In this document: in pieces, positions 1,520-24,985 of the stretch
How the letters are laid out: each line of letters begins with the position of its first letter
Position numbering within the stretch: the first letter of the stretch is position 1
From: Parasynechococcus marenigrum WH 8102
GTDB taxonomy: Bacteria; Cyanobacteriota; Cyanobacteriia; PCC-6307; Cyanobiaceae
NCBI RefSeq assembly: GCF_000195975.1
Contig: NC_005070.1
Location: 1,500,001-1,532,000 of the forward strand
Length of the DNA stretch: 32,000 nucleotides
Direction: 5' to 3'
Translations under genes and position numbers: made by a program
The notes under the pieces: generated by a model
What the model was told of the DNA's origin: nothing
Seen by the model: the letters and a program-made list of their open reading frames with translations, nothing else
Database searches by the model: none

Positions 1520-1906
1520 ATGACCCGCAAGCGCGTAACCGCTAGCGAGAAGAAACAACGCCATGCATGGGCGATACGTCAGATCGACAAAGGCGTCGGC
1601 TTCTCCGAGCTTGCGACCCTTGTGGCCGAAACATGGGGGTGTTCACGTCGACAAGCCCGTCGTGTCGTAGCTGATGCCCACAAAGAGTGGATGGAGATTG
1701 CCTTCGGAGCTGAGGAGATCGATCAGCGTGACCTGCTGATGCAAAGCGTCGCCCGCCTGGAGCGCACTGCGCGTAAGGCGGAAGCAAGCGGCAACTTCGC
1801 CTGTGCGATCGGCGCGGTTCAGCTGATGAATCGAATGATGGCCTCAGGTGCTGATCAGACGGGATGCCGCGGTCATCGCCGCAAAGGGCACTACTACCGG
1901 CACTGA
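1520..1906 (+). CDS. HTH DNA-binding protein, diverged paralogue of 12271..12654 and 20810..21193
   Basis: 128 aa. Same architecture as the other two copies: basic N-terminus, HTH-like segment (GFSELATLVAETWGCSRRQARRVV versus SFRTVAALVSGKYGVSERTAQRDL), KAE..G motif, and a His/Arg/Gly/Tyr-rich tail. Confidence 0.6.
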   Translation: MTRKRVTASEKKQRHAWAIRQIDKGVGFSELATLVAETWGCSRRQARRVVADAHKEWMEIAFGAEEIDQRDLLMQSVARLERTARKAEASGNFACAIGAVQLMNRMMASGADQTGCRGHRRKGHYYRH

Positions 1907-3532: not shown

Positions 3533-5344
3533 ATGCCACAAATGGCAACTCCACCAATTGTTGGCTTTCACAAGGGTCACGGGACTGATGGTGAGGAGCA
3601 TGTACATGAGGGAATAGAAACATTAGACACCGGATTTATTGGAATTGGACATACGCAAGACTCCCCAGAATCGGAGACTTTGGACATACTTGTCATCAAG
3701 ACTGATTCTAATGGTGAAGAAATCTGGAGTAAAAAGATTGGAGCGATTGGGGAATGGGATGTAGGCATTGCGATTGCCGAATCCAGCGATTCATTCTATG
3801 CAGTCGGAGGGAAAAGCCTAGGTGGCATTCAAAAACCAGTGATTATAAAGATGGCAAAAGGTGGTGAAATATTATGGGAAAAATTATTTGATACGCCCGG
3901 AGTTGGGATGCTGAGAGGCATTGATATCACTCAAAACGGGGAAGTAGCTGTAACCGGCTTCCATGAAGGAGACGAAGAGGGATTTGTATTTATATCGGAA
4001 GGAACTGGATTCGCAGCAGTCTTGGACAGAGATGGAGTGGTTGTCTGGCAAGAGGATTATGAACAAATACCTCAAGGAACAAAAATATTGAGCACCGATA
4101 ATAATGGCTACGCCATCTTATCAACTGTCTGGAATGAAGAAGAAAACAACGCGGCAATTTTAAAGATAGGAAATAGTGGAGAAGTGCAATGGTTTGAGAG
4201 CTATGGCGGTGGTAACAACCAAGCATTCGATTTCGAATATATTACGGAAGAAGGTTATGTCTTGGCTGGTCATACGAATTCTATCTCAGCAGTGAATTGG
4301 GATGGCTTGATGACCAAGGTCGATACAAGTGGAAATCTTGTTTGGCGAAAAACAGTAGGGCAGCCAAGAGGGTACGACTCACTGTATATCCATGATGAGT
4401 TCTACGGAATTGTTGTTGATTCTGATGGATCATATGTAATGGCTGGCGGAACAGGTGATGAATCTGCTATGTACGAAGAAGGCGGTCACCCATCAGGGCC
4501 CTCGGGAGAATGGAAGTCTTACTTGGTTAAAATCAATCCAAATGGACAGACTATATGGGAGGCAGTTTATGGAGAAAGCAATCAAGGGCACAATGCGGCA
4601 GAATTTTTGGATACCACTATTGACGGAGGCTTCATACTTTTCAATGACTCCGATACAGCTTCAATATCAACCAAAGAGCCAAACAATTTCGGATTCATGA
4701 AGCTTGATCATAATGCAAGCCATTTATCTGATGCCAACCAAGACCCATTACCTGAAACGGTAACTAACCCAACTCCTGAACCGGTTCCAACCCCTACTCC
4801 AGAACCAACGCCTGCAACTGTTCTTACACCCACGCCAGAACCACCGCCAACGCCATCTCTAGAACTACCACCATCGCCATTATCACCACCAATTGATGGT
4901 GACTTCTCATCTCTACCACCCGACTTATGGCTCTCGCAAACTCACGACGTCATCATTCAATCAGTTCGTGGTAAGGGTAAATTAAAGGGTAAGAAAGGTG
5001 CAGATGCCTTCTATTTTAATTCCTTTGAGGCATTTACTAAAAAGTCTGCTGACAAGATCATTGGATTTAAAGCATCGCAAGACACAATTGCCGTAAGTCC
5101 CGATGCGTTTCCTGCATTGGAAGGTGTCTCCGCTATCAGGTTTGCATCGACCAAGAGCAAAAAGGAATTAAAGCAATTATCCAAGGAGGATTACGATTTT
5201 GTCTATTTTGAGAAAAAAGGTCGGCTCTACTTCGATGGAAATGGCGCAGAGAAGAACTGGGGAAACAGTGATGAAGGAGGTCTTGTGGCAATCCTGAAAG
5301 GAAAACCTGAGCTAACTTCATTTGACATCAAATTGCTGGCTTGA
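3533..5344 (+). CDS. large secreted/surface repeat protein: SBBP-like beta-propeller repeats, Pro/Thr linker, shared C-terminal module
   Basis: 603 aa with no N-terminal signal peptide. Recurrent D..ivK.d.nGe..W.k..G.......gi....dG.y...G blades are followed by a PT-rich linker (4740-4930). The last ~133 aa (4946-5344) are near-identical at nucleotide level to 9361-9762 and 11847-12248. Confidence 0.85.
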   Translation: MPQMATPPIVGFHKGHGTDGEEHVHEGIETLDTGFIGIGHTQDSPESETLDILVIKTDSNGEEIWSKKIGAIGEWDVGIAIAESSDSFYAVGGKSLGGIQKPVIIKMAKGGEILWEKLFDTPGVGMLRGIDITQNGEVAVTGFHEGDEEGFVFISEGTGFAAVLDRDGVVVWQEDYEQIPQGTKILSTDNNGYAILSTVWNEEENNAAILKIGNSGEVQWFESYGGGNNQAFDFEYITEEGYVLAGHTNSISAVNWDGLMTKVDTSGNLVWRKTVGQPRGYDSLYIHDEFYGIVVDSDGSYVMAGGTGDESAMYEEGGHPSGPSGEWKSYLVKINPNGQTIWEAVYGESNQGHNAAEFLDTTIDGGFILFNDSDTASISTKEPNNFGFMKLDHNASHLSDANQDPLPETVTNPTPEPVPTPTPEPTPATVLTPTPEPPPTPSLELPPSPLSPPIDGDFSSLPPDLWLSQTHDVIIQSVRGKGKLKGKKGADAFYFNSFEAFTKKSADKIIGFKASQDTIAVSPDAFPALEGVSAIRFASTKSKKELKQLSKEDYDFVYFEKKGRLYFDGNGAEKNWGNSDEGGLVAILKGKPELTSFDIKLLA

Positions 5345-6144: not shown

Positions 6145-6237
6145 TCAACAGACAAAGGCTTCAAGCCACACAAAAGTCACCACTGATGCTTTTCCAATCG
6201 CCATCGACAACCACTGGTCACGAAGTATGCGCGTCAT
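6145..6237 (-). CDS. 30-aa hydrophobic peptide, paralogue of 22897..22989
   Basis: [30 protein letters not shown]. Same length and frame as the inverted duplicate at 22897..22989. Differences between the two include 4 synonymous codons. Confidence 0.4.
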
Positions 6238-6238
6238 C

Positions 6239-6280
6239 TCAGCAGTGCAGCTGACCCAATAAATCGCTACAGAGCCTCAT
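6239..6280 (-). CDS. 13-aa mini-ORF preceding the 30-aa peptide (leader-like)
   Basis: [13 protein letters not shown]. The stop lies 1 nt upstream of the next ATG. The equivalent ORF MMFSNDLLGHLHR* sits at 22854..22895. Confidence 0.25.
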
Positions 6281-6297
6281 GGCAAGCGCATGTAGCC

Positions 6298-9200
6298 ATG
6301 CGCAGAGAAAGTGGCAAACTGACTAAAGCTAGTGGCATGGCGATGCAAGGCAAGCTCCTCGAATCGGTACTGGTCCAAGTCCCGACGCAACCTCAGCAAA
6401 AAAATCGGACTGACCTTGAGGCAGAAACCACACTCATAGACAGAGCAACCCCTAGACGAACTCACCAAGAATGGGCGAACAGATCAGCTTTTGCTGCAAT
6501 TAATGCGGACGGGTCCGTTACATCCTGGGGTTCAACATTTGAGGGAGGTGATAGCAGTAATGTAGCCGATCAGATAAGTTCTGGTGTAGTAAGAATCCAC
6601 TCCACTAGACAAGCATTTGCTGCCATCAAGGATGATGGATCTGTAGTCGCATGGGGAAGATCTACCGATGGCGGAAACAGTTCAGCCGTTGCAGATCAAC
6701 TTGCCGGCGAGCATAATAATCAGCCTTCTGTTATTGACATTTCCTCGACGTTAGGAGCATTTGCGGCAATAAGAAATGATGGATCTGTAGTCACATGGGG
6801 ATCGTCTTTCAGAGGGGGAAACAGCAACGGCGTTACCGAGCATATTTCAAGCGGAGTCACCGATATCTTCAGTACACAATCTGCTTTTGCTGCTCTAAAG
6901 CGAGATGGTTCTGTGATTACGTGGGGCGATAGCGATTACGGCGGGGACAGCTCAGCTGTTGCAAGTGACTTGACGGGGGGCGTTGTCAAAATCTTTGCCA
7001 ATGACTACGCTTTTTCTGCCTTAAAGCAAGACGGTTCCGTTGTTACCTGGGGTCTTGACGCTTATGGAGGAAGAAGCCTTGAGGTAAGCGATTCCTTAAA
7101 CAATGTAAGTCACATCTATACAACAGACAGTGCATTCGCCGCACTCAAGGAAGATGGATCAGTCGTTTGCTGGGGACTAGACCTTTATGGTGGCAATCCG
7201 AGCGAAAGTATTGTTCAATTATTATCATCAGGTGTTTCATCCATATCCTCTACTCGTTATGCATTCGCCGCTCTTAAAGACGATGGATCAGTCATAACCT
7301 GGGACGACGTATCAGGCGGAGATAGCTCAGGTGTCTCAGAACAACTTCAATCAGGTGTGACAAGCTTATTTGCCACCGAACAAGCATTTGCTGCTTTGAA
7401 AAACGACGGCTCTGTTGTGAGCTGGGGGTCGATTTATTATGGCGGTGACAGCACTGATTTGCAATCAGAGCTCTCTAGTGGAGTCCATACAATCGTACCG
7501 AACGGCTATGCATTTTCTGCACTAAAGAATGATGGTTCTGTGCTAACTTGGGGCGGAGGAAATCAGGGCGGAGATATCAGTAGTGTTGCCGATGAATTAA
7601 GCGATGGTGTGACAGATATTTATGGCAATGAAAAAGCATTTGTTGCCATTAAAAATGATGGTAGTGTCGTGTCATGGGGTGCACCCAATCGCGGTGGAGA
7701 TTCAAGTGAAGCAAATTTCAGAGGCGGAAGTCCATCTATTGCGACACCATTAAGCGAATTAAATATCTCAGGCAAACCTATTGATGATTTTATCGATACT
7801 ATTCCTGTTCCTACCCCCACGCCTTCACCTGACACGACTACTTCACTAGGCCCAACGCCAACACCGGAATCAACTCCAATACCTTCTGCAACGCCAACAC
7901 CGGAATCAACTCCAATACCTTCTGCAACGCCAACACCGGAATCAACTCCAATACCTTCTGCAACGCCAACACCGGAATCAGCTCCAGTACCTTCTGCAAC
8001 GCCAACACCAGAATCAACTCCAGCACCTTCTGCAACTCCTGATCCGTCTATAGACCAAGAACTTATAGATGATTTCGCAAATAATTCTTCTACAAGCGGG
8101 GTTGTTGTTATAGGGGATGTCTTGTATGGCAATTTAGAATCCATATACGATGATGATTGGTTTAAAGTTTCATTAACCAAAGGAAGTGTTTATCGATTTG
8201 ATCTTGAGGGTATACAGTTGAATGATCCACGAATGACTCTGTATGGGTCTAATTTAAAGGAATTAACTTATGACGACGATGGAGGGTCTGGATATGACTC
8301 ACTCATTGAATTCACAGCAACGTCGAGTGATAACTATTTTATTAGTGCAAAAAGTTGGGGGGAAACTGGCACTTATACATTAAAGGCTACAGATATCACA
8401 CCAGCACCTTCTGCAACGCCAGCACCGGAACCAACTCCAGTACCTTCTGCAACGCCAACACCAGAATCTACTCCAGCACCTTCTGCAACTCCGGATCCGT
8501 CTATAGACCAAGAACTTATAGATGATTTCGCAAATAATTCTTCTACAAGCGGGGTTGTTGTTATAGGGGGTGTCGTGAATGGCAACTTAGAATCCATATA
8601 CGATGATGATTGGTTTAAAGTTTCGTTAACCAAAGGAAGTGTTTATCGATTTGATCTTGAGGGAATACAGTTGAATGATCCGCGAATGAGTCTGCATGGG
8701 TCTAATTTACAGGAATTAACTTATGACGACGATGGAGGGTCTGGATATGATTCACTCATTGAATTTACAGCAACGTCGAGTGATAACTATTTTATTAGTG
8801 CAAAAAGTTGGGGGGAAACTGGCACCTATGCATTAAAAGCTACAGATATAACACCAGCACCTTCTGCAACCCCAACACCGGAACCAACTCCATTACCTTC
8901 TGCAACTCCTGATCCATCTATAGACAAAGAACTTATAGATGATTTCGCAAATAATTCTTCTACAAGCGGGGTTGTTGTTATAGGGGGTGTCGTGAATGGC
9001 AACTTAGAATCCATATACGATGATGATTGGTTTAAAGTTTCATTAACCAAAGGAAGTGTTTATCGATTTGATCTTGAGGGAATACAGTTGAATGATCCGC
9101 GAATGAGTCTGCATGGGTCTAATTTACAGGAATTAACTTATGACGACGATGGAGGGTCTGGATATGATTCCCTCATTGAATTTACAGCAACGTCGAGTGA

Positions 9201-9762
9201 TGACTATTTTATTAGTGCAAAAAGTTGGGGGGAAACTGGCACCTATGCATTAAAAGCTACAGATATAACACCAGCACCTTCTGCAACCCCAACACCGGAA
9301 CCAACTCCATTACCTTCTGCAACGCCAACACCAGAATCAACTCCTGAGCCTGAGCCTTACGACGTCATCATTCAATCAGTTCGTGGTAAGGGTAAATTAA
9401 AGGGGACGAAAGTTGCAGATGCCTTCACTTTCGATAGCTTTGAACCATTCACAAAGAAAGCTGCTGACAAGATCATTGGATTTGAAGCATCGCAAGGCGA
9501 CACAATTGCCGTAAGTCCCGATGCGTTCCCTGCATTGGTAGGTGTCTCCGCTATCAGGTTTGCATCGACTAGGAGTAAGAAGGAATTCAAGCAAATGTCC
9601 AAGGAAGATTACGATTTTGTCTATTTTGAGAAAAAAGGTCGGCTCTACTTCGATGGCAATGGTTCTGCGAAGAACTGGGGGAACAGTGGTGAAGGAGGTC
9701 TCGTGGCAATCCTGAAAGGAAAGCCTGATCTAACTGCTGAGGACTTAACACTGCTTGCTTGA
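6298..9762 (+). CDS. giant secreted/surface protein: 10 RCC1-like repeats, PT/PS linker, 3 tandem PPC (pre-peptidase C-terminal-like) domains, shared C-terminal module
   Basis: 1154-aa ORF. The start is uncertain (ATG at 6298, 6337 or 6343). Ten AFAALKxDGSVxxWG....GGDSS units are followed by ([12 protein letters not shown])x5. Three domains with [14 protein letters not shown]...DP...LY......[10 protein letters not shown]...F.A....YFI....WGETGTY.LKA follow. The C-terminal module is 9361-9762. Confidence 0.85.
7855..8037 (+). repeat. 36-nt tandem repeat x5 encoding [12 protein letters not shown]
   Basis: acgccaacaccggaatcaactccaataccttctgca is repeated head to tail. The first three units are identical and the last two diverge slightly. 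Confidence 0.85.
8041..9330 (+). repeat. three tandem ~417-453 nt units (PPC-like domain plus PT linker)
   Basis: Units start at 8041, 8494 and 8911 (gatccgtctatagacc...). Units 2 and 3 are almost identical by eye. Confidence 0.85.
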
Positions 9763-9981: not shown

Positions 9982-10181
9982 TTTACAGCTAGGACTCTTG
10001 GTTAAACTATTGCGATACTGATGTTTTTCGTGGATCAACGAATGCAATGATTGACAACTGATCTCCGATTCCTGATAGAGATATCTATTTTTTCCAAAGT
10101 TAAATGCATAATAAGTTTTTCGGAGAGGCAATAGTTTTTTGCGATGAATTGTTCTACAATTATTTAAGAAGGAGAGTCACT

Positions 10182-12248
10182 ATGGCCAAAGCCCTCATAG
10201 CTGCATCGCCAGACCGCACCAGTCGTGAATGGCGTAATGCAGCTGCTTTTGCTGCACTTACTGAAACAGGGGAAATCCGTGCATGGGGAATCCCAACTTC
10301 AGGTGGCCTTTTGTCGATTGATGCAGCAGCGCTTAGTGGAGTACGCCAGATCTATTCGACTGAATCAGCATTCGCAGCATTGACTGATCAAGGGCAAGTA
10401 GTTGCGTGGGGTGGCAATGGAGGAGATGCCAGCGCAGTTCAGGATCAGTTGGAAAGTGGTATTCGATCAATTGCATCCACTACAGAGGCTTTTGCTGCTC
10501 TCGATATTAATGGCAAGGTCACAACATGGGGTACTGCGAAATTCGGTGGAGATACAAGCGACATAGCAGATGTACTCAATGAAGGTGTCGTTGATATATT
10601 TTCTACTGATCATGCATTTGCTGCACTTAAAGAAGATGGCACTGTGGTGGCCTGGGGTGACGAGTTTTCTGGTGGATTTAGGGGGAAATCTGGAATAGGA
10701 GTTGCACAAAATGTTCGAGAGATACGTTCTACATCTGGAGCTTTTGCGGCATTATTAAATGACGATACAGTGCAGACATGGGGCTATTGGAATCATGGCG
10801 GCCTTCCCGAGGGGGTAAGTGCTCTTGCATTGGCATCCGGACAAGTAAAAGACATTTTCAGTAATGAGTTCACATTTGCTGCACTTTTGAAAGATGGCAC
10901 GGTAATTGCTTGGGGGAGTCCATCATCTGGAGGTGATACAAGTTCGGTTGACGAGCAATTGATGGATGTGCAGACAATTGTTGGGAATCGAAATGCATTT
11001 GCAGCAATTACGGGTAGTGGAAAAGTGGTTAGTTGGGGCATCTCGGGGGACAATTACGTAGATCAGGGTGATGCCTTGGGGGCGGGTGTGATTAACGTCG
11101 TTGCATCTGATCAGGCTTTTGCTGCGCTCAAAAGCGATGGCTCTGTCGTGACATGGGGTTCCAGTCAATACGGTGGAGACAGTTCTGCTGTTGCTAGTGA
11201 TTTGATCAGTGATGTTGTTGAACTGACCGCTTCTGAGTCCGCGTTCGCTGCGCGAAAGAGTAATGGGAAGGTTGTAACTTGGGGTGACAATGAGGCCGGT
11301 GGGGATAGCTCCTCTGTTCAGCCACAGCTACTGACTGGCGTCGAAAAGGTCTACGCCAACCAGCTTGCATTCGCGGCCTTGAAATCGGATGGATCAGTTG
11401 TGACATGGGGAGATCAGGAATATGGCGGTAACTCACGATTTGCGACTGGTGGTGATCTAGACGATATTGTGAATATTGCTGATGTTTTTACAGATACTTT
11501 CATTGGTGATAATTTCATCGATACCGTTCCGGTTCCAACACCAACACCGGTTCCAACACCAACACCGGTTCCAACACCAACACCGGATCCAACACCAACG
11601 CCGGATCCAACACCAACACCGGATCCAACACCAACACCGGATCCAACACCAACACCGGATCCAACACCAACACCGGATCCAACACCAACACCGGATCCAA
11701 CACCAACACCGGATCCAACACCAACACCGGATCCAACACCAACACCGGATCCAACACCAACACCGGATCCAACACCAACACCGGATCCAACACCAACACC
11801 GGATCCAACACCAACACCGGATCCAACACCGACGTCAGAGCCTTATGACGGCATCATTCAATCAGTTCGTGGTAAGGGCAAATTAAAGGGAACGAAAGTT
11901 GCCGATGCCTTCACTTTCGATTCCTTTGAAGCATTTACTAAAAAGTCTGCTGACAAGATCATTGGATTTAATGCATCGCAAGGCGACACAATTGCCGTTA
12001 GTCCAAATGCGTTCCCTGCATTGACAGGTGCCTCCGCTATCAGCTTTGCATCGACTAGGAACAAGAAGGAGTTCAAGCAATTGTCCAAGGAGGATTACGA
12101 CTTTGTATATTTTGAGAAAAAAGGTCGCCTCTACTTCGATGGAAATGGCGCAGAGAAGAACTGGGGGAACAGCAGTGAGGGAGGTCTTGTGGCAATCCTG
12201 AAAGGAAAGCCTGAGCTAACTGCTGAAGACGTAACACTGTTGGCTTGA
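10182..12248 (+). CDS. large secreted/surface protein: 10 RCC1-like repeats, (TPTPDP)n linker, shared C-terminal module
   Basis: The preferred start is ATG 10182, preceded by AAGGAGAG at good spacing; the track's 10104 start adds 26 odd residues. The N-terminus [26 protein letters not shown] parallels 6298..9762. The C-terminal module is 11847-12248. No signal peptide. Confidence 0.85.
11527..11836 (+). repeat. 18-nt tandem repeat x17 (3 x ccaacaccaacaccggtt, then 14 x ccaacaccaacaccggat) encoding (TPTPVP)3(TPTPDP)14
   Basis: Nearly perfect head-to-tail units counted directly. Every Asp unit contains GGATCC. Confidence 0.9.
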
Positions 12249-12270
12249 CAAAGCTTTAATGCTGATCACC

Positions 12271-12654
12271 ATGGCAAGGACTAGCGCGAAAGAACGTTTA
12301 GCCCGTAGGGAACATGCACTGGCGTTGCTTGCTGATGGGAACAGCTTCAGAACGGTTGCGGCGCTTGTGTCGGGAAAGTACGGGGTTTCTGAAAGAACTG
12401 CTCAACGGGACTTGACTTGGGCGAGAAACAGACTGGTAGGGGAACTGAGTTCGACGGAAGTCAAAGAGCTGTTGGCATGGTTCTGCCATAGAACTCAGAC
12501 CATCGTTCAGAAAGCCGAGAAAGCAGGTGCTTACGGTGCTGCTGTTGCTGGCATGAACCTGATTTACCAAGCGGTGCTGTCACGCGAGCTGGACAGTATT
12601 CACAGCAACCGGCATCGGGGCTATGGCAACCGACACGGGAATTACAAGGGTTAA
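12271..12654 (+). CDS. HTH DNA-binding protein (copy A of a near-identical inverted pair)
   Basis: By homology with 20810..21193 the start is ATG 12271 (MARTSAKERL), not 12259. HTH-like segment: NSFRTVAALVSGKYGVSERTAQRDL. It starts 22 nt after the stop of the third large gene. Confidence 0.7.
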   Translation: MARTSAKERLARREHALALLADGNSFRTVAALVSGKYGVSERTAQRDLTWARNRLVGELSSTEVKELLAWFCHRTQTIVQKAEKAGAYGAAVAGMNLIYQAVLSRELDSIHSNRHRGYGNRHGNYKG

Positions 12655-12887
12655 GGCCGAGTTGCGCAGTTTGCTGCTCACTTCCGTGGTCGCTTTACGC
12701 ACCATGGCTCCCGAAGGTGAGATGCCAATCTGTGTGGCTTATTCCAGATAGCCCATATGGATTACAAGGATTTTTGCCTCACCTGGCTGGTTACGTTGGC
12801 GGCCATCAACACAGTTCTGAATGTGCGCGCTCAACGAAGGCGCTGAGCAGCTTTGGCGTCGTTGCCAGCTTTTACGGAATTGCCTGC

Positions 12888-12989
12888 TCACCGCCTAATA
12901 GGCCGTCGGAGCAGATTGCGGTGGTTCAGGACGCAGGCTGTAATAGCTCCAACGCCAAAGGCGATTACCAAAGTGAGAAAGTGGGTCAC
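12888..12989 (-). CDS. 33-aa hydrophobic peptide (hypothetical)
   Basis: GTG start. (M)THFLTLVIAFGVGAITACVLNHRNLLRRPIRR*. It lies directly downstream of 12993..13142 on the same strand. Confidence 0.25.
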   Translation of the reverse strand: MTHFLTLVIAFGVGAITACVLNHRNLLRRPIRR

Positions 12990-12992
12990 GAC

Positions 12993-13142
12993 CTATTTGC
13001 GGTTGAAGAGCTGCAGAGCCGCATAGATGATCACGGCAAGGATGATGTAGTTGAGCAAAGCCCTGAGGATCGTTAGGCTGAGAAAAATGACGAGAACCGA
13101 GATGGCAGCTCGTTTGACGATGGCCTTAGAGCCATCAGTCAT
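12993..13142 (-). CDS. 49-aa membrane peptide (hypothetical)
   Basis: MTDGSKAIVKRAAISVLVIFLSLTILRALLNYIILAVIIYAALQLFNRK*. Two hydrophobic spans. More plausible than the overlapping + ORF 12717..13076. Confidence 0.35.
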   Translation of the reverse strand: MTDGSKAIVKRAAISVLVIFLSLTILRALLNYIILAVIIYAALQLFNRK

Positions 13143-13213
13143 GAAGCGCCAACGGGGAATCAGAGCCACTACAACGCTGAATATATTTGTCAGTTCTAGA
13201 GCAGTACCAGGGT

Positions 13214-13237
13214 GACCTGCTCCCAGTTCTGCTCACC
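13214..13237 (-). repeat. two tandem 12-mers GGTGAGCAGAAC / TGGGAGCAGGTC (same motif as 15325-15360, opposite orientation)
   Basis: The reverse complement of cctgctcccagttctgctcacc matches the GTGAGCAGAA 12-mers next to integrase 1. Confidence 0.4.
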
Positions 13238-13530: not shown

Positions 13531-13779
13531 TCATCTGACCTCCGCAAGCTCTCTACGCACGGAGTCGATGCCGATCATCAACTTGCCGCGCTCGTGGAAT
13601 TTCTGACGGCAGGTGGTGATGTTCCAGCTGATTGAGCTGGCATCAGTTGGTCCGAAGCACCAATCCTGACCAGCGATCAGAAAGCCACCGTTACGGTCGC
13701 GATAACGCTTCAGCGTGCGGGCGCTGTAGCCCAAGGCTGTTGTTGCTGCCGGTGTTGGCAGCCATTCATGTTCAGGCAC
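13531..13779 (-). CDS. Xis/AlpA-like HTH protein (putative excisionase or regulator)
   Basis: 82 aa. EWLPTPAATTALGYSARTLKRYRDRNGGFLIAGQDW is paralogous to 17778..18014 (EWFKTSEAARLCGVSSYWLKENRDISGGFLVIDKHW). It lies downstream of integrase 1 on the same strand. Confidence 0.6.
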   Translation of the reverse strand: MPEHEWLPTPAATTALGYSARTLKRYRDRNGGFLIAGQDWCFGPTDASSISWNITTCRQKFHERGKLMIGIDSVRRELAEVR

Positions 13780-13970
13780 AAGAAGATCAGCGATTTTGTT
13801 CTCTGCTGATCTCTTGCGGTTTTTAAGGAAGTTACTAGCGGACCCCTGTCAAATCCCTTTTGCGCAGTGAAAAGAGTGAACCTTCAATCCAGTAATTAAG
13901 GCAAGGAACAACGTAATGTTGCTACTCGCACTGGGACAAGAGATGAAGCAAAATTGCTCCTAAACAACTT

Positions 13971-15110
13971 CTAGGCGGCTTCCGGGTGTAGGTCAAGGGG
14001 TGACAAGGTATCCCCCTCCAAAGTTGTCCTACCTGCTCCAGTAATCCGTTCGACAGCCTCAATCAAGCCAGCCTCATCAATCCACTGTCCATAACTGGCG
14101 TGATGCTCCTGTGGAGTGTGCCCGAGCAGCGCAGCAGCATCCCGAATCGACAACGGGCGGTCATATGACTTGTGCATCCGATAAGCACAGCCGTGCCCCA
14201 GGCTGTATGGCGTCAACCCTGAGCGGGTTGCTTCCAGGCCCTGCCAAAACCTGAAGCGTTGGAGCTGCTGCCGAATCTCATCACCAACAGGCTTGAAGCC
14301 TTTCTCCTCAGCCTCGTTGATGCGGTTCAAAACGGTCTGAGGGAAGCGAATCGTGCCAGTGCGCCACAGCATCACCAGACGCTCTCCTTCACCTTCTCTG
14401 CCTGGCACGTCGAAGGGCAACACCAACCTGTTCTTCTGTTTCTTGCCTCTAGTGGCTTTGTTCCGCTTGCCACCGGGTCGGACTTTCAAATGCCCGTCCT
14501 CCCAAATCAGCTGACTGACTTCAAGGGGGCGCAGACCGTAGATGCCAATAATCCCCACCAGCAACATCAGGCTGGTCCTGTCGGCATCCCTAAGCGCGTC
14601 GAGCAGATTGCCCAGATCGTTGGGCATCACAGGTGGCGTCAACTTGTCCTCAGTGGGTCTGTCGTCAGTACCGATCAACTCCCGCAGGTCATCTGTTTCC
14701 AGAGGCTTCCAACGGCTGTCGTAACCAAATTCCTTGATCGCGTGCCGCAGCAAGCCGCGAACGTTGTTCATCTGTGTGATGCGCCCTGATTTTCCTGGTG
14801 GGCAGTTCTTGAAATGCTGCCGAGCGAAGGAGCGCATCAGGTCAGCGCCACTTTGGGGACGTGGCTTCTTCGCCAAGGTTTGCTTCACCCGTTCCATGTG
14901 ACGGGTGAGGTCCTTCATCGTTGTTGAGCGGCTGTTCTGCCGCCTTCTCTCGATGAAGTCATAGATGACGGCCTGCCAGCCGCTGTCTTCGTCATCCACC
15001 GACTTGCTGACCGTGGGAGTCGCACCGTGCTGCTTCTGTAGCAGCTGAAACGCCTTTGCGAGGGACTCCTCCCCCTTCTCCATACGCTCCCTGATCTGGC
15101 AAACCACCAA
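13971..15110 (-). CDS. int: tyrosine recombinase/integrase paralogue 1 (catalytic Arg II replaced by Gly; possibly inactive)
   Basis: Box I is GLRPLEVSQL. Box II is PYSLGHGCAYR...LLGHT...HHASYGQW, versus PYSLRHGFAWR...LMGHT...HHRHYGAW in integrase 2. The start is ambiguous (TTG 15110, GTG 15107 or ATG 15083). Confidence 0.8.
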   Translation of the reverse strand: MVVCQIRERMEKGEESLAKAFQLLQKQHGATPTVSKSVDDEDSGWQAVIYDFIERRRQNSRSTTMKDLTRHMERVKQTLAKKPRPQSGADLMRSFARQHFKNCPPGKSGRITQMNNVRGLLRHAIKEFGYDSRWKPLETDDLRELIGTDDRPTEDKLTPPVMPNDLGNLLDALRDADRTSLMLLVGIIGIYGLRPLEVSQLIWEDGHLKVRPGGKRNKATRGKKQKNRLVLPFDVPGREGEGERLVMLWRTGTIRFPQTVLNRINEAEEKGFKPVGDEIRQQLQRFRFWQGLEATRSGLTPYSLGHGCAYRMHKSYDRPLSIRDAAALLGHTPQEHHASYGQWIDEAGLIEAVERITGAGRTTLEGDTLSPLDLHPEAA

Positions 15111-15324
15111 GAAGATGTCGCCACTGTGAGCAGGGTTCCAGGGGATCCCTAGCTGAACCGTTTGGCGTGGATTCTTGTGTTGCTTACCGGCAGCTATCCG
15201 GCGGGTTTAACGCACGCCTCCATGGCGCTCATCGATGCCCCAACCGGGGCCACAACGGTGTTTGATCTGGCGGCGTAGTTCCTTCAAACCACTTGTGCTC
15301 AGCCATGGGGAGCAGATTTTTCCC

Positions 15325-15420: not shown

Positions 15421-15453
15421 CAAGAAACCTGTCTAGGACAGTGTTTTGAAGAA

Positions 15454-15499
15454 TGGAGCCAAGGAGACTCGAACTCCTGACCCCCTGCATGCCATGCAG
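15454..15499 (-). repeat. 46-nt copy of the tRNA-Ala(GGC) 3' part (distal att repeat)
   Basis: tggagccaaggagactcgaactcctgaccccctgcatgccatgcag is identical to 24848-24893. Similarity ends exactly where the 5' part of the tRNA should continue. Confidence 0.9.
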
Positions 15500-15648: not shown

Positions 15649-16928
15649 GCCCTGACCACCTGCATCTCTTGGCCAAAGTCATCTGGTCCGACAACTTGCG
15701 GCAGGTGCTCAAGCGTGAGCACGGCAAAGGTTGGTCAGTCAGAGACCACCGTGGCCGGGTACAGCTGACGCGGATTTTTGAAGACCGTTCACGCAGTGCC
15801 GTTTACCTGCCATTGACTTGGACAGCCGATAACGCCACATCGATCCTCAACACGGTTGCTGCAATTCACGACCTGATGGATTCGCGCAAAGTCAGCCTGA
15901 AAGAAGCTGCCAGGTTGAACACTCAGGCATTGGCAGAGCCAGCCAAAAGCGCCAAGACGGTGGCTGACAAAGGTTGGGATGCAGTTGCTGCCGACTTCCT
16001 CAAGAGCCGTGGTGACAGGCGCAGCAGCACTCTCAGAGACCTCAAGCTGCGGGTTGAACGTGCTGTTGCAGTCATCAACCAGAAGCCCAAACCACGCGAC
16101 GGTATGAGCGTGTTGGAGGCATACGCCGCCGCCTACTTCAAGGAAATGGCACCCGGTGGTCAGGGGCGTAAACGAAATCTGAACGACGTCGTGGCATTCC
16201 TCCAATTCGCTGTTGATCGTTGCGGTGCACCAGACCGTTTCCTGCCACCACCAAAAGACCGCATCAATGAATTGATCGGCACCAGCCCAACATCAACAAC
16301 GGAACGACTGACACCACCAATCAAGGCAGACCAGTTCACTGCATTGTTGGATGCACTGGAAGCTGACGGCCGGCATGACCTCAAGCTGGCAGTGGCGTTG
16401 GTTGGCTATCTCGGGTTGCGGCCTGCAGAGCTGGCAGTCCTGCGTGTTGGTGATGACGAAAAGGCAAGGGTCGGCAGCATCAAGCGCAACATCCAAACGA
16501 TGCAGCAGGCAGACAAGCCGCCACGGTTGGTGATGCCACTTGAGATTGACGGCAGAAACAACGAAGGTGCCCGGGCCATAGCACAGTTCGCTAGTGGACT
16601 GGTGAAGTTGCCGAAAGCACTACGAAAACAGATTGATTTAGTTGAGGAGAAAGGACGTTTTCAAGACGTTGGTGCTGAATTTGCCCAGCAACTTTCACGC
16701 TGCAAGCATTGGCAAGCCATGTTCAAAGCAGACCCGCGCATCACCCCGTACAGCTTGCGCCATGGATTTGCTTGGCGGGCAACAGTGGGCCAAAACAAGA
16801 TTCCGGTAAGAACTACTGCCGCATTGATGGGGCATACAATGCAAGTGCACCACAGGCATTATGGCGCTTGGGTTGACGAAGCAGCCATTGAAGAAGCAGT
16901 TGGCATGCACAACGCTGTCGTCGCTTGA
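15606..16928 (+). CDS. int: tyrosine recombinase/integrase paralogue 2 (catalytic residues intact)
   Basis: GLRPAELAVL (Arg I), YSLRHGFAWR (Arg II), LMGHT, HHRHYGAW (Tyr). The true start is probably downstream of the 12-mer repeats, for example GTG 15705 (VLKREHGKGW). Confidence 0.85.
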   Translation: MLLLGAFWRTIWRTSPDHLHLLAKVIWSDNLRQVLKREHGKGWSVRDHRGRVQLTRIFEDRSRSAVYLPLTWTADNATSILNTVAAIHDLMDSRKVSLKEAARLNTQALAEPAKSAKTVADKGWDAVAADFLKSRGDRRSSTLRDLKLRVERAVAVINQKPKPRDGMSVLEAYAAAYFKEMAPGGQGRKRNLNDVVAFLQFAVDRCGAPDRFLPPPKDRINELIGTSPTSTTERLTPPIKADQFTALLDALEADGRHDLKLAVALVGYLGLRPAELAVLRVGDDEKARVGSIKRNIQTMQQADKPPRLVMPLEIDGRNNEGARAIAQFASGLVKLPKALRKQIDLVEEKGRFQDVGAEFAQQLSRCKHWQAMFKADPRITPYSLRHGFAWRATVGQNKIPVRTTAALMGHTMQVHHRHYGAWVDEAAIEEAVGMHNAVVA

Positions 16929-17545: not shown

Positions 17546-17806
17546 ATGGCTCGTAACGCAGACAATCGCAAAGGGAGAGGTCGGCCTGTCCGAATGCCTC
17601 AGAACCTTGCCGTCAAAGATCGGCAAGTGGTTCTGAAGTTGGCGGAACAGATGTCCCGCATCTGCAGCAACGCGACTGCAGAGCAGCTGGCAGAACTGGC
17701 TGCTGACCCTGATATTGCAACTGCTCCGCGTTTCTTCAAAGAAGCCATGAGGTCGTTCGGGACACCGCTCCCGACCGATGCAACACGAATGGTTCAAAAC
17801 GTCTGA
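17546..17806 (+). CDS. hypothetical protein with N-terminal basic GRGRP (AT-hook-like) segment
   Basis: MARNADNRKGRGRPVRMPQ.... It overlaps the next gene by 29 nt. Same strand as the replication module. Confidence 0.4.
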   Translation: MARNADNRKGRGRPVRMPQNLAVKDRQVVLKLAEQMSRICSNATAEQLAELAADPDIATAPRFFKEAMRSFGTPLPTDATRMVQNV

Positions 17807-18014
17807 GGCTGCAAGGCTCTGCGGCGTTTCTAGTTACTGGCTGAAGGAAAACCGCGACATCAGCGGTGGCTTCCTTGTGATCGACAAGCACTGGATTCCT
17901 GGCATCACACCAACGTCATCAATTCGATGGCACGTGCCATTGGTGCTGGAAGCGATGCGATACCACGGCATGAATCGCATCAAAGGCGATCAGATGTTGG
18001 AGGCCGTGCAGTGA
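17778..18014 (+). CDS. Xis/AlpA-like HTH protein (paralogue of 13531..13779)
   Basis: MQHEWFKTSEAARLCGVSSYWLKENRDISGGFLVIDKHW. Its stop TGA overlaps the next GTG start (GTGA). Confidence 0.6.
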   Translation: MQHEWFKTSEAARLCGVSSYWLKENRDISGGFLVIDKHWIPGITPTSSIRWHVPLVLEAMRYHGMNRIKGDQMLEAVQ

Positions 18015-18235
18015 TTAAGCGCGCCACCTTCGATGACAACGGCAAAAAAGTGCCGGTGAAACTCACTGTTCGTGAGCAGATGCGTCATGCAGCAGCAATG
18101 GCTGACGACTGCAGATCAAAGCTGCAATGGCACCTGACTCCTACTGCGCGGGAGATGTACGAAGACTCCCTGCTTCGGCACACGCAGGACTGGATCCGAC
18201 TCAAAAAACAAGCAGACCAACAAGCAGAAAAATGA
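18011..18235 (+). CDS. 74-aa hypothetical protein (translationally coupled)
   Basis: The GTG at 18011 overlaps the preceding stop. Its own stop overlaps the ATG of the primase gene (ATGA at 18232-18235). Confidence 0.45.
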   Translation: MIKRATFDDNGKKVPVKLTVREQMRHAAAMADDCRSKLQWHLTPTAREMYEDSLLRHTQDWIRLKKQADQQAEK

Positions 18236-19374
18236 CCCACAACCCAATGGGTCGCGGGCCACTCCCTGCCAAAGATGTGGTCAATTTAGGCGACCCTCTG
18301 CCTACAAAGCAGTGCGTCACAGCACTGAAACCCACTGCAGTACCTGAAGAAAATCTGCCCGACTGGGCTCAATGTGCGCCAAAGAGTGCGCCGAACAGTG
18401 TTTACAACGCAGGCACTGATGTCACTGATGTCACTGACGGTACGGATGGCACTGGCAAACGGCTCACCATTGATGCAGCTCAAGCCCATTGGCATCTGGA
18501 CCTGCTTGGCAGGGATGAACGTGACGTTCACATCAGAGCCATCCCGCACAAGGGCAAACGCGGTTTCGCCATCAATGGCAACTTCGCCATGGACCTCGAG
18601 CGATTCCAAGATCTGAACAACCAGGGCTACGGCCTGTACCTTCAGCCAAACATCGGCGGCACCTTGAAAGATGAGGTCACGCTGTGCACCTCACTGTTCT
18701 GGGAATACGACGACAGACCACGGTCTTAACAGGTTGAGCTTTGGCAATCAACCGTTGGGTTGCAACCCACGTTCCAGATCGACACGGGTGGAAAGTCGAT
18801 CCACAACTATTTGGTGCTGGATACCCCTATGGCTCCGGGGCCATGGACGCTGTTGATGGAACGTCTGCAGTTGGCAGCGCCTGGCTGCGACAAAAGCTGC
18901 AAAGGCAACAACCGCATGATGCGGATGGCTGGTGCCCACTACATCGACCGTGAAGGTAAATCCCGGGGGCGATCACAGATCATCAACGCTGACGGCCCGC
19001 GTTACTCAGCTGAAGAGCTGGATGCAGTGTTGCCACCGTTGCTGGTGCCATCGAAAACCAACCGCAAGAAGTTGCGGACTGGTTCAGCGTCAGTGCGACA
19101 GATCGCTGAAGCGCTCGATTACATCCCACGTCGCGTTGGTGGCGCTGGCACCTACGCCATGTACCGCGATGTGTTGTGGGGGTTGAAGGCTGCGCTTGCT
19201 GATGCCGGTGCAGCCGAGACCTTGGCCATTCAGCTGATGGAAGCGCACAGTCCCTCAGCTCAATGCGATTGGGATGTTGAGCAGGTAGCTCGGTCTGGTG
19301 GTGAGCAGATCGGTGCAGGAACACTTTTCCACTACGCCAAGCAATACGGATGGAGTCGTCATGCAAAACGCTGA
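18232..19374 (+). pseudogene. AEP-type primase(-polymerase) with PriCT-2-like C-terminus, interrupted by an in-frame TAA at 18727-18729
   Basis: LFWEYDD (AEP motif I-like) ends the first ORF. TGGKSIHNY (motif II-like) and RMMRMAG follow in the same frame after a single TAA. The C-terminus GTLFHYAKQYGW is PriCT-like. Confidence 0.6.
18373..18395 (-). promoter_or_regulatory. tandem pair of the GGCGCAC 12-mer inside the primase gene (inverted relative to the end copies)
   Basis: The reverse complement reads ttcggcgcactc tttggcgcaca. Confidence 0.35.
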
Positions 19375-20664
19375 ACTAAACAAAGTCGTTGATGACGCTG
19401 AAAACGACAACCCAGAACTGAAGACCAAAGACTTCATTGAACGGGCAACAACGCTCAAGGAGAACCTCGACACGGGGTTGGAACGCGTTGATCAGATCGA
19501 TGACCCAGCGTTGCGGTCTGTGGCTCTGATCCAGCTACGGGACGAACTGGGCCTTAATCGCAATGAGTTCATGCGCCTGGTGGAACTGCTGTCCAAATTC
19601 AAAGGGGAGCAGCCGCCAGAAGACTTTGATGAACTCCGCAAGTGGACATCAGAGCGGCGTGAACCGCCTGTTGTGGAAGACCTGCTTGGCTCCAGCTGCC
19701 TGACTGTTTGGGCAGCTGATGGCTCTTCAGGCAAAAGCATGGGTGGTTATGAACTCAGCGAAGCCGTAACCACTGGCGGCAAGTTCGCTGGTCAGTTTCA
19801 AGCGCAGGTTGGCGATGTGGTGTTCGTCCAAGAAGACGAGTCACCCAGTGATGCTGAGGTGAAGTGGCGACGTATGGGTTTCAACCCCGACGGCAAACGA
19901 CTGCACATGATGTGGTCGTTCACTCCAATGATGCTTCCGGAGTTAAAAGCCAAGATCCAGCCACCTAAGCAAAGCTGGTGGTGATGGATTCGCTTATCAG
20001 CATTGCTGGCGGAACCATCTCACCAAAGGATGCTGAGTTTGCGCTGCTGCTTTACCGGCTCAACAAGTTGGCGTCGGAATTGGGCGTAGCGATCCTCCTG
20101 ATTCACCACCTCACAAAGGACAGCAACCGCAAAGAGGTCAGCAAAGAAGCCATCTTCGGCAGCGCCTTCATCTACGCCGCTACAGCCGATTGCTGGGGCT
20201 ACTGGCGGTGCGATGAAGACGGCAAACCGCATTTCAAATTGCGGGTGCTGAAGGCTCGTTCCAACACCGTTGATCTGGGCACCACCTACGTCTTCAACGG
20301 CAATGAGGAAGACCACCGCTTGAGCTTCAAAGGCTTTGGTGATCGTGTGGTCAGCCTTGATGAACTGAAGACCAAACGCGACCAGGTGGCAGCCTTGTTG
20401 CATCGCGATGGCAGCCAGAAATGGTCTGGTGCTTGCGTCAGCGACTTCTTCGGTTGGAACGGCAGCCGTTACGCCGAAAACGTGTTGTCCAAACTCTACG
20501 AACAACGTTGTGGCGTTGATCGTGTGGCAATGCCCAGCACTGGTGGCAGGCGGAAATACGCCTACTTCAGCGTTTTGGGTGGAGAAGTGAAAAAGTCCGA
20601 CTTCCCCACAGCTTCTACACCCCCTAAAACCGGGTCAGAAGCCAGTTCGGAACTGGACTTCTAA
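19361..20664 (+). pseudogene. RecA-like (AAA_25/RepA-type) replicative helicase split by a frameshift near 19966-19984
   Basis: Walker A (AADGSSGKS) lies in ORF 19361..19984. Walker B-like VVMDSL and LIHHLTK lie in ORF 19978..20664, one frame away. Joining at ~19969 gives ...IQPPKAKLVVMDSL. Confidence 0.6.
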
Positions 20665-20807: not shown

Positions 20808-20809
20808 TG

Positions 20810-21193
20810 TCAGCCCTTGTAATTCCCGTGTCGGTTGCCGTATCCCCGATGCCGATTGCTGTGAATACTGTCCAGCTCGCGTGACAGCACCGCTTGGTAA
20901 ATCAGGTTCATGCCAGCAACAGCGGCACCGTATGCACCTGCCTTCTCGGCTTTCTGAACGATGGTCTGAGTTCTATGGCAGAACCATGCCAGCAGCTCTT
21001 TGACTTCCGTCGAACTCAGTTCCCCTACCAGTCTGTTTCTCGCCCAAGTCAAGTCCCGTTGGGCAGTCCTCTCAGATACCCCGTACTTTCCCGACACAAG
21101 CGCCGCAACTGTTCTGAAGCTGTTTCCATCAGCAAGCAACGCCAACGCATGTTCCCTACGGGCTAAGCGTTCTTTAGCGGTAGTCCTTGCCAT
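20810..21193 (-). CDS. HTH DNA-binding protein (copy B, inverted relative to 12271..12654)
   Basis: 127 aa. It differs from copy A at 20 nt: 18 synonymous, 1 Ser/Thr change, and the stop codon (TAA versus TGA). Confidence 0.75.
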   Translation of the reverse strand: MARTTAKERLARREHALALLADGNSFRTVAALVSGKYGVSERTAQRDLTWARNRLVGELSSTEVKELLAWFCHRTQTIVQKAEKAGAYGAAVAGMNLIYQAVLSRELDSIHSNRHRGYGNRHGNYKG

Positions 21194-21209: not shown

Positions 21210-21797
21210 TCAACGAAGTCCTTCACAGGCTTCACCATCATTATCGCTATCTAGATAGACGTGACCCTCTTGAAGAAGTAATTGCGCTTTATCCCACGAA
21301 GAGATTTCGCTACAACGAAGCCTTGCATTGGTCCCCCTCCTATAAATCCAAGGCCTCGTAATGCCTTGCTTACCTTCTGACCAGATACCTTGTTTGAGAT
21401 CTCTCGCTTGACTTTCCAGGAGAAGAAGATTTGGACCATCACAATCTGAAAGATATCTTGTGTACACAAACACAAGCCCTTTACGCACTAGTTCTCCAGC
21501 TACATCAACTCCCCCTGGAGTAGAGACATGTGCAACTGTGCGGCCATATCGATCTTTTTTGATGGGATAGATTGTAATGGCTGAGTCTGCAGGTATCAAT
21601 CCGCGAAATGCATTCATAGCTAGTCTTCCGTATGGATATTGTCCAATTTCTGGGGCATTAACGCATGCCAGCCTTATTTGTTGCGGGATACCATTTAGCC
21701 TTACGATAAGACTGTCTCCATCAACCACCCTGATGACTTCAGAGGCGGTGAGTGGTTGCGGAGTAAAAACAAGCAGACCTAAAACTAACTTTGACAT
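21210..21797 (-). CDS. secreted thermonuclease (SNase-like) with C-terminal Excalibur Ca-binding domain
   Basis: The start is taken at MSKLVLGLLVFTPQPLTA (signal-peptide-like). SNase motifs: DGDSLIVRL...IRLACVNAPE...DRYGRTVAHV. The C-terminus C..ISSWDKAQLLLQEGHVYLDSDNDGEACE fits the Excalibur pattern. AT-rich. Confidence 0.8.
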   Translation of the reverse strand: MSKLVLGLLVFTPQPLTASEVIRVVDGDSLIVRLNGIPQQIRLACVNAPEIGQYPYGRLAMNAFRGLIPADSAITIYPIKKDRYGRTVAHVSTPGGVDVAGELVRKGLVFVYTRYLSDCDGPNLLLLESQARDLKQGIWSEGKQGITRPWIYRRGTNARLRCSEISSWDKAQLLLQEGHVYLDSDNDGEACEGLR

Positions 21798-21866
21798 CCC
21801 AATAGCAAGCGACTCCAACACATGTCCCCTACGGGCAAAGCATTCTTTCGCGGTGGTGCGTGCCAT
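21798..21866 (-). pseudogene. 5' remnant (23 codons) of an HTH-gene copy fused in frame to the nuclease ORF
   Basis: MARTTAKECFARRGHVLESLAIG is encoded by atggcacgcaccaccgcgaaagaatgctttgcccgtagggg.... This is homologous but not identical to the first ~70 nt of 20810..21193. Confidence 0.6.
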
Positions 21867-22029: not shown

Positions 22030-22743
22030 TCACCCTATTGCTAGATCTACTGCCCTTGAAAGAGTCAATCCAAATACGTCAAGCACTACGAATCCATTTA
22101 AAAGTCGTACTATTTTTGAAGTAGAAGTTTTGCATGAATCCCCAGAGTAGTCGAAGCAAGCCTCTGCTGCGAAGAAAAAATATTCAAGAGCCCCTAGCCC
22201 GTCCATTCCTGCAATTGCCGGTGACAGATTTCTTTCAGATCGTCCATGGTTCATTCGCCAATACCACCACGTAAAACAAATCAAGATTATGGGAATAAAA
22301 AGCAAAAGCTCAATAATTAAAAGCACTGGGCTTTTGATAGGAGCCACAAGAAGCAGATTCATTATAACAAGTTCAACGATCCAGCAGGCTGAAAGGAAGA
22401 TAGCCAGTAGGTCAATCGATCTTCGCGCTTTTTTGCCCGATAGTCTCAGTACTATCAGAATAAATGTATACGTAAAAAATCCAGCTCCTATTGGCTGAAC
22501 ATGATTAGTGAGTGCATCCAAAAACGAATGAGATATCTCAAGAAAATTCTTAACCGCACCTTCTTCGACAGCCTCAAGGTCTAAGTTTCTATCAAATTGC
22601 TCAGTAAAAATAAAAGTAATAAGGAGTACGTAAATTTCCCCAGGGCTTTTGATTCGATCAATAAATGGCATTGTACTACCAGCAAGTTTTAAATATTTAA
22701 GCAAAAAAGCCCGGGGCTTCCAACCCCCCGGGCTAGTACTCAT
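22030..22743 (-). CDS. multi-pass membrane protein (unknown function)
   Basis: 237-aa AT-rich ORF with about 5 hydrophobic spans. The start may be M25 (MPFIDRI). The segment EYFFFAAEACFDYSGDS loosely recalls a degenerate pore loop, which is speculative. Confidence 0.5.
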   Translation of the reverse strand: MSTSPGGWKPRAFLLKYLKLAGSTMPFIDRIKSPGEIYVLLITFIFTEQFDRNLDLEAVEEGAVKNFLEISHSFLDALTNHVQPIGAGFFTYTFILIVLRLSGKKARRSIDLLAIFLSACWIVELVIMNLLLVAPIKSPVLLIIELLLFIPIILICFTWWYWRMNHGRSERNLSPAIAGMDGLGALEYFFFAAEACFDYSGDSCKTSTSKIVRLLNGFVVLDVFGLTLSRAVDLAIG

Positions 22744-22853
22744 CGAAAGCAGGGCGCTGTCACGATTAGGCGCGCGAATAAGTCATTGTTAGGCTGAGGT
22801 ATTCCCGTGGCGATAGCTGGCTGATCCAGCTTCTTGCCTGAGCGGACCTTGCC

Positions 22854-22895
22854 ATGATGTTCAGCAACGATTTATTGGGTCATCTGCATCGCTGA
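22854..22895 (+). CDS. 13-aa mini-ORF (leader-like), paralogue of 6239..6280
   Basis: MMFSNDLLGHLHR*. The stop lies 1 nt upstream of the next ATG. Confidence 0.25.
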   Translation: MMFSNDLLGHLHR

Positions 22896-22896
22896 G

Positions 22897-22989
22897 ATGG
22901 CACGCGTTTTTCGTGACCAGTGGTTGTCAATAGCGATTGGAGGAGCATCACTAGTGACGTTGGTGTGGCTTGAGGCGTTTGTCTGGTGA
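22897..22989 (+). CDS. 30-aa hydrophobic peptide, paralogue of 6145..6237
   Basis: MARVFRDQWLSIAIGGASLVTLVWLEAFVW*. Frame and length are conserved in the inverted duplicate. Confidence 0.4.
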   Translation: MARVFRDQWLSIAIGGASLVTLVWLEAFVW

Positions 22990-24813: not shown

Positions 24814-24847
24814 CAAATGCCAGTGCCTGACTGGGTTCTCTTAGAAA

Positions 24848-24920
24848 TGGAGCCAAGGAGACTCGAACTCCTGACCCCCTGCATGCCATGCAGGTGCTCT
24901 ACCAGCTGAGCTATGGCCCC
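24848..24920 (-). tRNA. tRNA-Ala(GGC): tRNA-Ala (anticodon GGC)
   Basis: Manual cloverleaf: acceptor GGGGCCA/TGGCTCC with the G3:U70 Ala identity pair, D arm GCTC/GAGC, anticodon stem CCTGC/GCAGG with loop ATGGCAT, T arm AGGAG-TTCGAGT-CTCCT. 73 nt; CCA not encoded. Confidence 0.9.
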
Positions 24921-24985
24921 ATGAACGCCGGTGATGCCCTCGGGCTCGTGCCGTCGTCGTATCCAAGCTTACACCGAGGCGGCGA

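Follow-up and report, generated by a model that had tools for sequence, protein, structure and literature searches.

The 32,000-nt stretch of DNA analysed here, referred to as the window, was found to carry two tycheposon-like elements arranged head-to-head in a tRNA-Ala(GGC) island, next to lexA-argF-ftsH in a WH8103-like marine Synechococcus. Each element includes one copy of a gene for a 127-aa HTH protein, and the two copies, which lie in opposite orientations, are independently acquired alleles of one conserved element gene and not a duplication. The gene is a shared homologous hinge between variable cargo and a variable replication/integration backbone. Its product is, at roughly even odds, a satellite-type small terminase (TerS-like), a reading that draws on sequence and predicted fold through a remote and transitive link. 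For the explanation as a whole, which joins the two-element architecture, the hinge and the TerS-like packaging role, we estimate a probability of about 0.6.

Two elements at tRNA-Ala(GGC)

Core genome occupies the right end of the window with lexA, argF, ftsH and an SRAP gene, and is preceded by the tRNA-Ala(GGC) gene. A 48-nt perfect repeat, comprising the 3' 47 nt of tRNA-Ala and one extra base, is present within the tRNA gene and again as a displaced fragment, such that element 1 extends over 9.3 kb (15500-24845) and element 2 lies to the left of 15452. The ends of the elements and the genes close to them are:

24847..24921, minus strand: tRNA-Ala(GGC), the integration target
24846..24893: att copy (48 nt, 100%) within the 3' half of the tRNA gene, right end of element 1
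15452..15499: displaced att copy (tRNA 3' fragment), boundary between element 1 and element 2
15705..16928, plus strand: integrase 1, an intact tyrosine recombinase, inward-facing, at the tRNA-distal end of element 1
13971..15305, minus strand: integrase 2, adjoining the att copy; remaining ORF 13971..15110
13534..13779, minus strand: 82-aa small ORF beside integrase 2, Xis-like from its position only
17778..18014, plus strand: 78-aa counterpart in element 1, 36% identical to the 82-aa ORF and likewise Xis-like by position only
12271..12654, plus strand: copy A, carried by element 2, of the gene for the 127-aa HTH / small-terminase-like protein
20810..21193, minus strand: copy B, carried by element 1; the helicase gene ending at 20664 is convergent with it

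The two integrases are 37% identical and diverge around the att copy, each facing into its own element. Their matches are generic (PF00589 at E 1.4e-4 and phrog_1 at 4e-16), and for the small ORFs the Xis reading found no match in Pfam, PHROG or NCBIfam. Counted from the displaced att copy, element 1 includes integrase 1, an 86-aa ORF, the 78-aa ORF, a primase and an AAA_25 helicase, while its opposite strand carries a non-coding module of ~140 nt (described below), a 237-aa ORF, an SNase/Excalibur nuclease and then copy B. The remaining genes of the two elements are:

18232..19374, plus strand: primase of element 1, with an in-frame TAA at 18727 (GAA in an intact relative)
19361..20664, plus strand: AAA_25/DnaB-like helicase of element 1, with a frameshift near 19960
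22030..22743, minus strand: 237-aa ORF, cargo of element 1
21210..21866, minus strand: secreted nuclease with SNase and Excalibur domains, cargo of element 1
3533..5344, 6298..9762 and 10104..12248, plus strand: three large repeat proteins, cargo of element 2, upstream of copy A

RCC1/beta-propeller repeats were recognised in the proteins encoded by 6298..9762 and 10104..12248, the former also including PPC domains, and all three repeat-protein genes have in common a 3' end of ~400 nt at 87-90% identity. The two RCC1 proteins also have long linkers rich in Pro/Thr, for which tandem repeats of 18 and 36 nt code. Copy number and length of the repeat proteins vary among the window, WH8103 and CP047956.1. 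In element 1, a 29-codon ORF (MARSAQARSW...) follows the 140-nt module at 22855-22700 (minus strand) and runs into a strong GC-rich hairpin and then a T-run (AGCCCGGGGGGTTGGAAGCCCCGGGCTTTTTT), a stretch that overlaps the annotated start of the 237-aa ORF; the ORF and hairpin could be a leader/attenuator or a remnant.

Both elements in the window are decaying. Integrase 2 has lost its start codon and carries a premature stop at codon 33 (15207-15209), and a deletion at 13311/13315 has left element 2 short of ~2 kb including the DUF3987 primase/helicase, by comparison with the metagenome contigs L009 and L006. Because of this decay, copies A and B may themselves be out of use.

The 127-aa protein and the non-coding module

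The close family of the 127-aa protein matched no Pfam or NCBIfam family, no source annotation and no PHROG above threshold; weak sub-threshold matches of the protein were to HTH_23 and to phrog_645 (labelled 'RNase E'). An exhaustive profile search disclosed 61 cluster representatives of the family, and a word-seeded profile search that used the wider alignment brought up at least 839 small unannotated proteins, almost all metagenomic. The most conserved motif of the wider family, WGCSRRTAxRD, lies in the HTH, with SRRTAxRD as the recognition-helix motif. The AF2 monomer was modelled on the deeper alignment (pLDDT 85.8; a shallow alignment had given 51.7) and displays five helices, of which the first three, at residues 6-21, 26-37 and 41-57, are HTH-like, and the last two, at 61-84 and 88-118, form a hairpin followed by a disordered basic tail.

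The best PDB matches of this model in Foldseek were the small terminases of phages G20C and P74-26 (4xvn, 6v1i), weak and not significant at E 0.2-0.7. The family profile aligned nearly end to end with the small terminase of Pam5 (PDB 21di; E 0.66), which belongs to the Pfam family Terminase_2 (PF03592). Comparison of the family with 30 Terminase_2 proteins by hhalign gave 86.8% probability (E 4.3e-6, score 41.2, 89 columns, ~17% identity), with a maximum of 0.9% and a score of 16.7 among reversed and column-shuffled controls. A higher value (95.2%, E 2.8e-8) was obtained in hhalign with a 107-aa protein of the Prochlorococcus siphovirus MED4-184 (phrog_34910). Its gene, CPAG_00036, overlaps the terL start and has portal and head genes downstream, and the same arrangement is found in MED4-117. 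Distant homologues, 31-38% identical, keep the synteny, in that they are convergent with a VapE-like helicase gene in integrase-bearing elements; the small ORFs next to them gave no family matches.

The close family alone showed no profile link to the phrog_34910 phage protein, nor the phage protein alone to Terminase_2, and the 127-aa protein matched no terminase model of Pfam, NCBIfam or PHROG. A tblastn search of 50,697 phage records with the 127-aa protein returned nothing, and when viral contigs of IMG/VR were scanned three times, the queries being the close family and two of the distant homologues, no real relative emerged from this collection, which is biased against contigs not looking viral. 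For these elements neither a pac site nor a helper phage was identified, and no capsid-remodelling genes or virion-derived contigs were found.

A TerS-like protein would direct the large terminase of a helper cyanophage to package element DNA, as in phage satellites, and the near-invariance of the protein across unrelated backbones would then reflect its fit to common helper machinery and not to the element's own integrase or replicase. It is possible, though rather doubtful, that cargo-carrying tycheposon-like islands of marine Synechococcus and, judging from the distant homologues, of related picocyanobacteria are phage satellites in which the near-invariant gene serves both as an unrecognised TerS, passing the island with its cargo to the terminase of a helper cyanosiphovirus, and as a module-swapping hinge.

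Two further assignments of the protein were considered and abandoned. The best sequence match in the PDB was the lasso-peptide RRE TfuB1 (E 1.4e-4), but a PqqD/RRE reading would account for only 34 HTH residues; the beta-sheet of the RRE is missing from the protein and the context is not a RiPP cluster. The TfuB1 match spans residues ~17-50 (window 12319-12420) and is probably due to convergent helix packing. A role as excisionase is unlikely because each element has its own ORF of 78-82 aa beside the integrase, Xis-like by position only.

Further members of the family occur in the window:

1520..1906, plus strand: diverged 128-aa family member, located distally, where the island is older
21797..21866, minus strand: 5' stub, ~70 nt at 79-84% identity to the gene, in frame with the SNase/Excalibur ORF and forming its start

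The first of these had been put forward as a third, much more diverged paralogue. Plain BLASTP against the 127-aa protein is not significant (E 0.054, and out of register), but profile comparison supports the relationship, since hhalign with the family gave 85.6% probability (E 5.5e-6, 26% identity over 102 columns); the protein also matches phrog_34910 at 2e-6. The second is a fourth, partial copy of the gene (21866..21797, minus strand) that had escaped the original prediction. Synechococcus sp. WH8103 (LN847356.1) matches the distal island at 98.7-99% identity. Short repeats common to this island and the tRNA-proximal end of element 1 (23252-23390, 1070-1129 and 562-690 / 23461-23592) comprise a tandem pair of 69 nt along with inverted matches of 45-60 nt, an indication that older, similar elements left remnants here.

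Upstream of the cargo, both elements carry the A/C-rich module of ~140 nt, which is about 78-92% conserved between loci:

6145..6286, plus strand: non-coding module upstream of the element 2 cargo, ending in the first codons of the gene (ATGGCAAG at 6279)
22848..22989, minus strand: second copy, 83% identical, upstream of the cargo in element 1; its start-codon stub is at 22855

The full module was found in contigs L001, L002, L008 and L011-L013 and its 3' part only in L006, L009 and L014. An intact gene directly follows the full module in L002 and the last ~40 nt of the module in L009 and L014. The module includes an inverted repeat, GTCACCAGTG...CACTGGTCAC; RNAalifold gave 15 pairs with zero compensatory changes, so that no covariation in favour of a structured RNA was detected. 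The module may be a promoter/operator or a packaging site.

These properties bear on the most serious alternative, namely that the protein is an element-encoded transcriptional regulator, with its HTH and a coiled-coil dimer, that binds the ~140-nt module and thereby controls expression of the cargo or of the element, its likeness to TerS being only architectural. Such a regulator would suit a module that is the only DNA common to both elements besides the gene and its 5' stub, that contains an inverted repeat, and that elsewhere directly precedes the gene, entire or with its 3' end. The conservation of the recognition-helix motif SRRTAxRD above all other positions and the weak matches to HTH_23, HTH_11 and HTH_29 also fit, and Hackl et al. 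renamed one of their HTH profiles from 'terS-1-pro' to 'reg'. Against it, the similarity to TerS profiles spans the helical hairpin as well as the HTH while the controls stay flat, the phage homologue occupies the TerS slot, and no regulator family was matched above threshold. On balance a regulator seems unlikely. The original prediction had suggested an element-encoded regulator or DNA-binding partner as a possibility; the element-encoded, DNA-binding character is upheld, but a small-terminase-like protein is better supported than a regulator.

A different repeat is confined to element 1, in which T(T/C)GGCGCAC occurs as pairs with 12 nt spacing:

15626-15646, plus strand: repeat pair
18374-18394, minus strand: repeat pair
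20786-20806, minus strand: repeat pair
24740-24760, plus strand: repeat pair

Two of these sites are ~90-130 nt from the att ends, one is within the primase gene and one follows immediately after the stop codon of copy B. The TTGGCGCAC repeat pairs were discarded as operators of the 127-aa protein, given that element 2 encodes this protein too but has none of the four, all of which lie in element 1. They are likely to be arm-type sites of the integrase or iterons.

The gene pair as alleles and hinge

The original prediction had counted 20 differences between the 384-nt copies, and a re-count returned the same total, made up of 18 synonymous changes (16 at third positions and two at first positions of Leu codons), the replacement Ser5Thr (AGC/ACC) and a TAA/TGA stop. 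By self-BLAST the copies are 95.3% identical over 380 nt (E 5.8e-174), far beyond chance. Their flanks are indeed unrelated, as homology is confined to the segment from ATG to stop and the 100 nt on either side are dissimilar; in copy A the gene caller had placed the start at an upstream ATG (12259), giving 131 aa. Nei-Gojobori estimates for the two copies were dS 0.226 (18 changes in 92.3 synonymous sites) and dN 0.0035 (one change in 288.7 non-synonymous sites), and the resulting omega of 0.015 bears out the strong constraint that had been proposed. Under neutrality, the probability that at least 18 of 19 changes would be synonymous is 1.2e-10. Among 16 gene copies from different contigs, 28 of the 32 variable sites are synonymous, and the 18:1 synonymous excess of the pair reflects strong purifying selection across the whole allele pool.

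The exact protein of copy B was found in 121 blocks of the assembly collection. In all loci read, the gene closes the transcription unit on the cargo side and is convergent with a helicase gene of AAA_25, DUF3987 or, in distant relatives, VapE-like type, followed by the integrase. The upstream flanks were of three types:

U1: end of an RCC1-type cargo gene
U2: end of an Excalibur domain
U3: the 140-nt module

With three downstream types (D1, D2 and D3), the combinations U1D1, U2D2, U2D1, U3D1 and U1D3 occur among the 16 copies, and the four-gamete test fails for 114 of the 190 informative site pairs. The gene itself is 96.6-97.6% identical in relatives that share only ~90% of their backbone sequence with element 1, and copy A has 99.2-99.7% identity with the gene on unrelated contigs but only 95% with copy B. 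Stubs of the first codons of the gene persist behind the 140-nt module, ahead of the cargo, and the 70-nt stub precedes the nuclease.

The single-cell genome of Synechococcus sp. AG-670-A05 was the sole genome with relatives of the gene in a scan of species-representative genomes. It has three copies (L001 1717-2094, L002 2260-2625 and L003 ~9975-10262), of which one is intact (93% aa identity) and the other two look degraded, so that the presence of several copies in one genome is a recurrent feature.

Comparison with a sister metagenome scaffold located a short tract in copy B:

20924..20992: conversion/recombination tract in copy B, with differing bases at 20924, 20933, 20942 and 20992

Over 19,436 bp (11758-31193) the window and the sister scaffold differ at four positions, all within these 69 nt, and at all four the sister scaffold has the base of copy A. 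The patch of four SNPs points to a conversion tract, formed either by intragenomic conversion from A to B in the sister lineage or by import of an external allele into the window lineage. On both accounts this gene is the site of recombination. Its direction is ambiguous because the outgroup copy in CP047956.1 (an NCBI record of 2,401,547 bp, treated as a second lineage) agrees with the sister at three of the four sites. The original prediction had excluded both a recent duplication and gene conversion. The former exclusion holds, the copies being alleles carried by two different mobile elements, but conversion is not to be dismissed when the patch in the sister assembly matches copy A.

The mirror arrangement of the window, in which cargo and gene A read rightwards towards integrase 2, this integrase and integrase 1 diverge from the att copy, and integrase 1 and the replication genes read towards gene B and its cargo on the opposite strand, can be understood from contigs carrying single elements. 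In L009, an element of type 2 stands alone beside a full tRNA-Ala, with integrase and tRNA on the same strand, and in L010, the integrase of a type 1 element and a partial tRNA copy are divergent; relative to the integrase, the att core is therefore oriented oppositely in the two element types. Insertion of a type 1 element between the tRNA and a resident type 2 element would give the mirror image observed. The gene copies are thus inverted because elements of opposite polarity were integrated in tandem at one tRNA, and CP047956.1 has the same two-element arrangement, inverted gene pair included. A past inversion was rejected as the origin, as a flip from copy to copy keeps the symmetry but misorients the att copy, and none is needed, the arrangement being accounted for by attP polarities that are opposite in the two element types.

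It had also been suggested that recombination between the copies could invert the 8.1-kb segment between them; a further reading makes the pair a recombination switch that flips both integrases and the replication genes. The geometry is as described, with the inverted copies bracketing both integrases, the replication genes and the internal att copy, and a repeat of 380 nt that is 95% identical and includes unbroken matches of ~69 nt is sufficient for RecA-mediated exchange. The conversion-like tract indicates that the copies, or the allele pool, do recombine, and contig L013 joins upstream flanks of B type to downstream flanks of A type. However, the flanks of L013 are unlike those expected from an inversion here, and the genes of the segment are mostly pseudogenes. 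The inverted configuration was seen in no assembly; the window, four metagenome scaffolds and CP047956.1 all have a single orientation. Such an exchange is feasible in principle, but a functional switch is very improbable.

No more credible is an old duplication within the genome, with the copies diverging in place under purifying selection, as the original prediction had it. Divergence confined to synonymous sites would be expected from such a history, but the copies belong to separate elements split by an att copy, each element type occurs alone elsewhere with its own copy of the gene (L009, L010), and copy A is closer to copies on unrelated contigs than to copy B. The copies came separately instead, from a recombining gene pool. 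An assembly artefact, in which a repeat had been collapsed or duplicated, has in its favour only the high identity and can be set aside in view of the 20 differences and of the presence of both copies, each with its distinct flanks, in four independently assembled metagenome scaffolds and in CP047956.1, which establish a real pair.

Comparison with tycheposons and phage satellites

The elements of the window resemble the tycheposons of Hackl et al. (bioRxiv 10.1101/2020.12.28.424599) and the tycheposon-like insertions of Synechococcus in Grebert et al. (PMC8995045) in their tRNA-Ala(GGC) target, flanked by a full and a partial tRNA, this tRNA being one of the seven tycheposon targets (Hackl et al., bioRxiv 10.1101/2020.12.28.424599). 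They further have in common with them an inward tyrosine recombinase at one end, a small primase/helicase module (disrupted in element 1, and represented by DUF3987 in relatives of element 2), cargo genes, tandem arrays split by partial tRNAs, and decaying remnants. Both tRNA-proximal and tRNA-distal positions of the integrase have been described (PMC8995045; bioRxiv 10.1101/2020.12.28.424599). Unlike tycheposons, the elements of the window stand head-to-head with opposite polarity. The terS-bearing (PICI-like) tycheposons were reported without cargo (Hackl et al., bioRxiv 10.1101/2020.12.28.424599), whereas the TerS-like gene of the window is at the junction of cargo and backbone in cargo-carrying elements.

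With the TerS of satellites (SaPI/PICI; marine VEIMEs, PMC9618062) the protein has in common its small size and HTH, its location in an island with integrase and primase/helicase but no terL of its own, and homology to a phage gene in the TerS position. In the AF2 model an HTH-like N-terminus is followed by a long helical hairpin, similar to Terminase_2 small terminases; in contrast to them, the protein falls below every curated threshold and has a short basic tail in place of the usual C-terminal region. The 107-aa phrog_34910 protein of the Prochlorococcus siphoviruses MED4-184, P-HS2 and MED4-117 is a homologue in the wider family and of similar length. It differs from the element gene in being encoded by a phage, directly upstream of terL, and is annotated as hypothetical, its TerS role being deduced from position alone.

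What is new is an unannotated TerS-like family in cargo-carrying tycheposon-like elements. The inverted pair is an ordinary consequence of tandem integration and not a designed switch, and the reassorting flanks together with the conversion tract offer a view, at base-pair resolution, of how cargo and backbone modules are exchanged. Because the gene is currently without a Pfam family or annotation, it would also be a simple marker for finding such elements. If the TerS-like reading is true, packaging by the terminase of a helper cyanophage would provide cargo-carrying elements with a route for transfer between cells in the dilute ocean.
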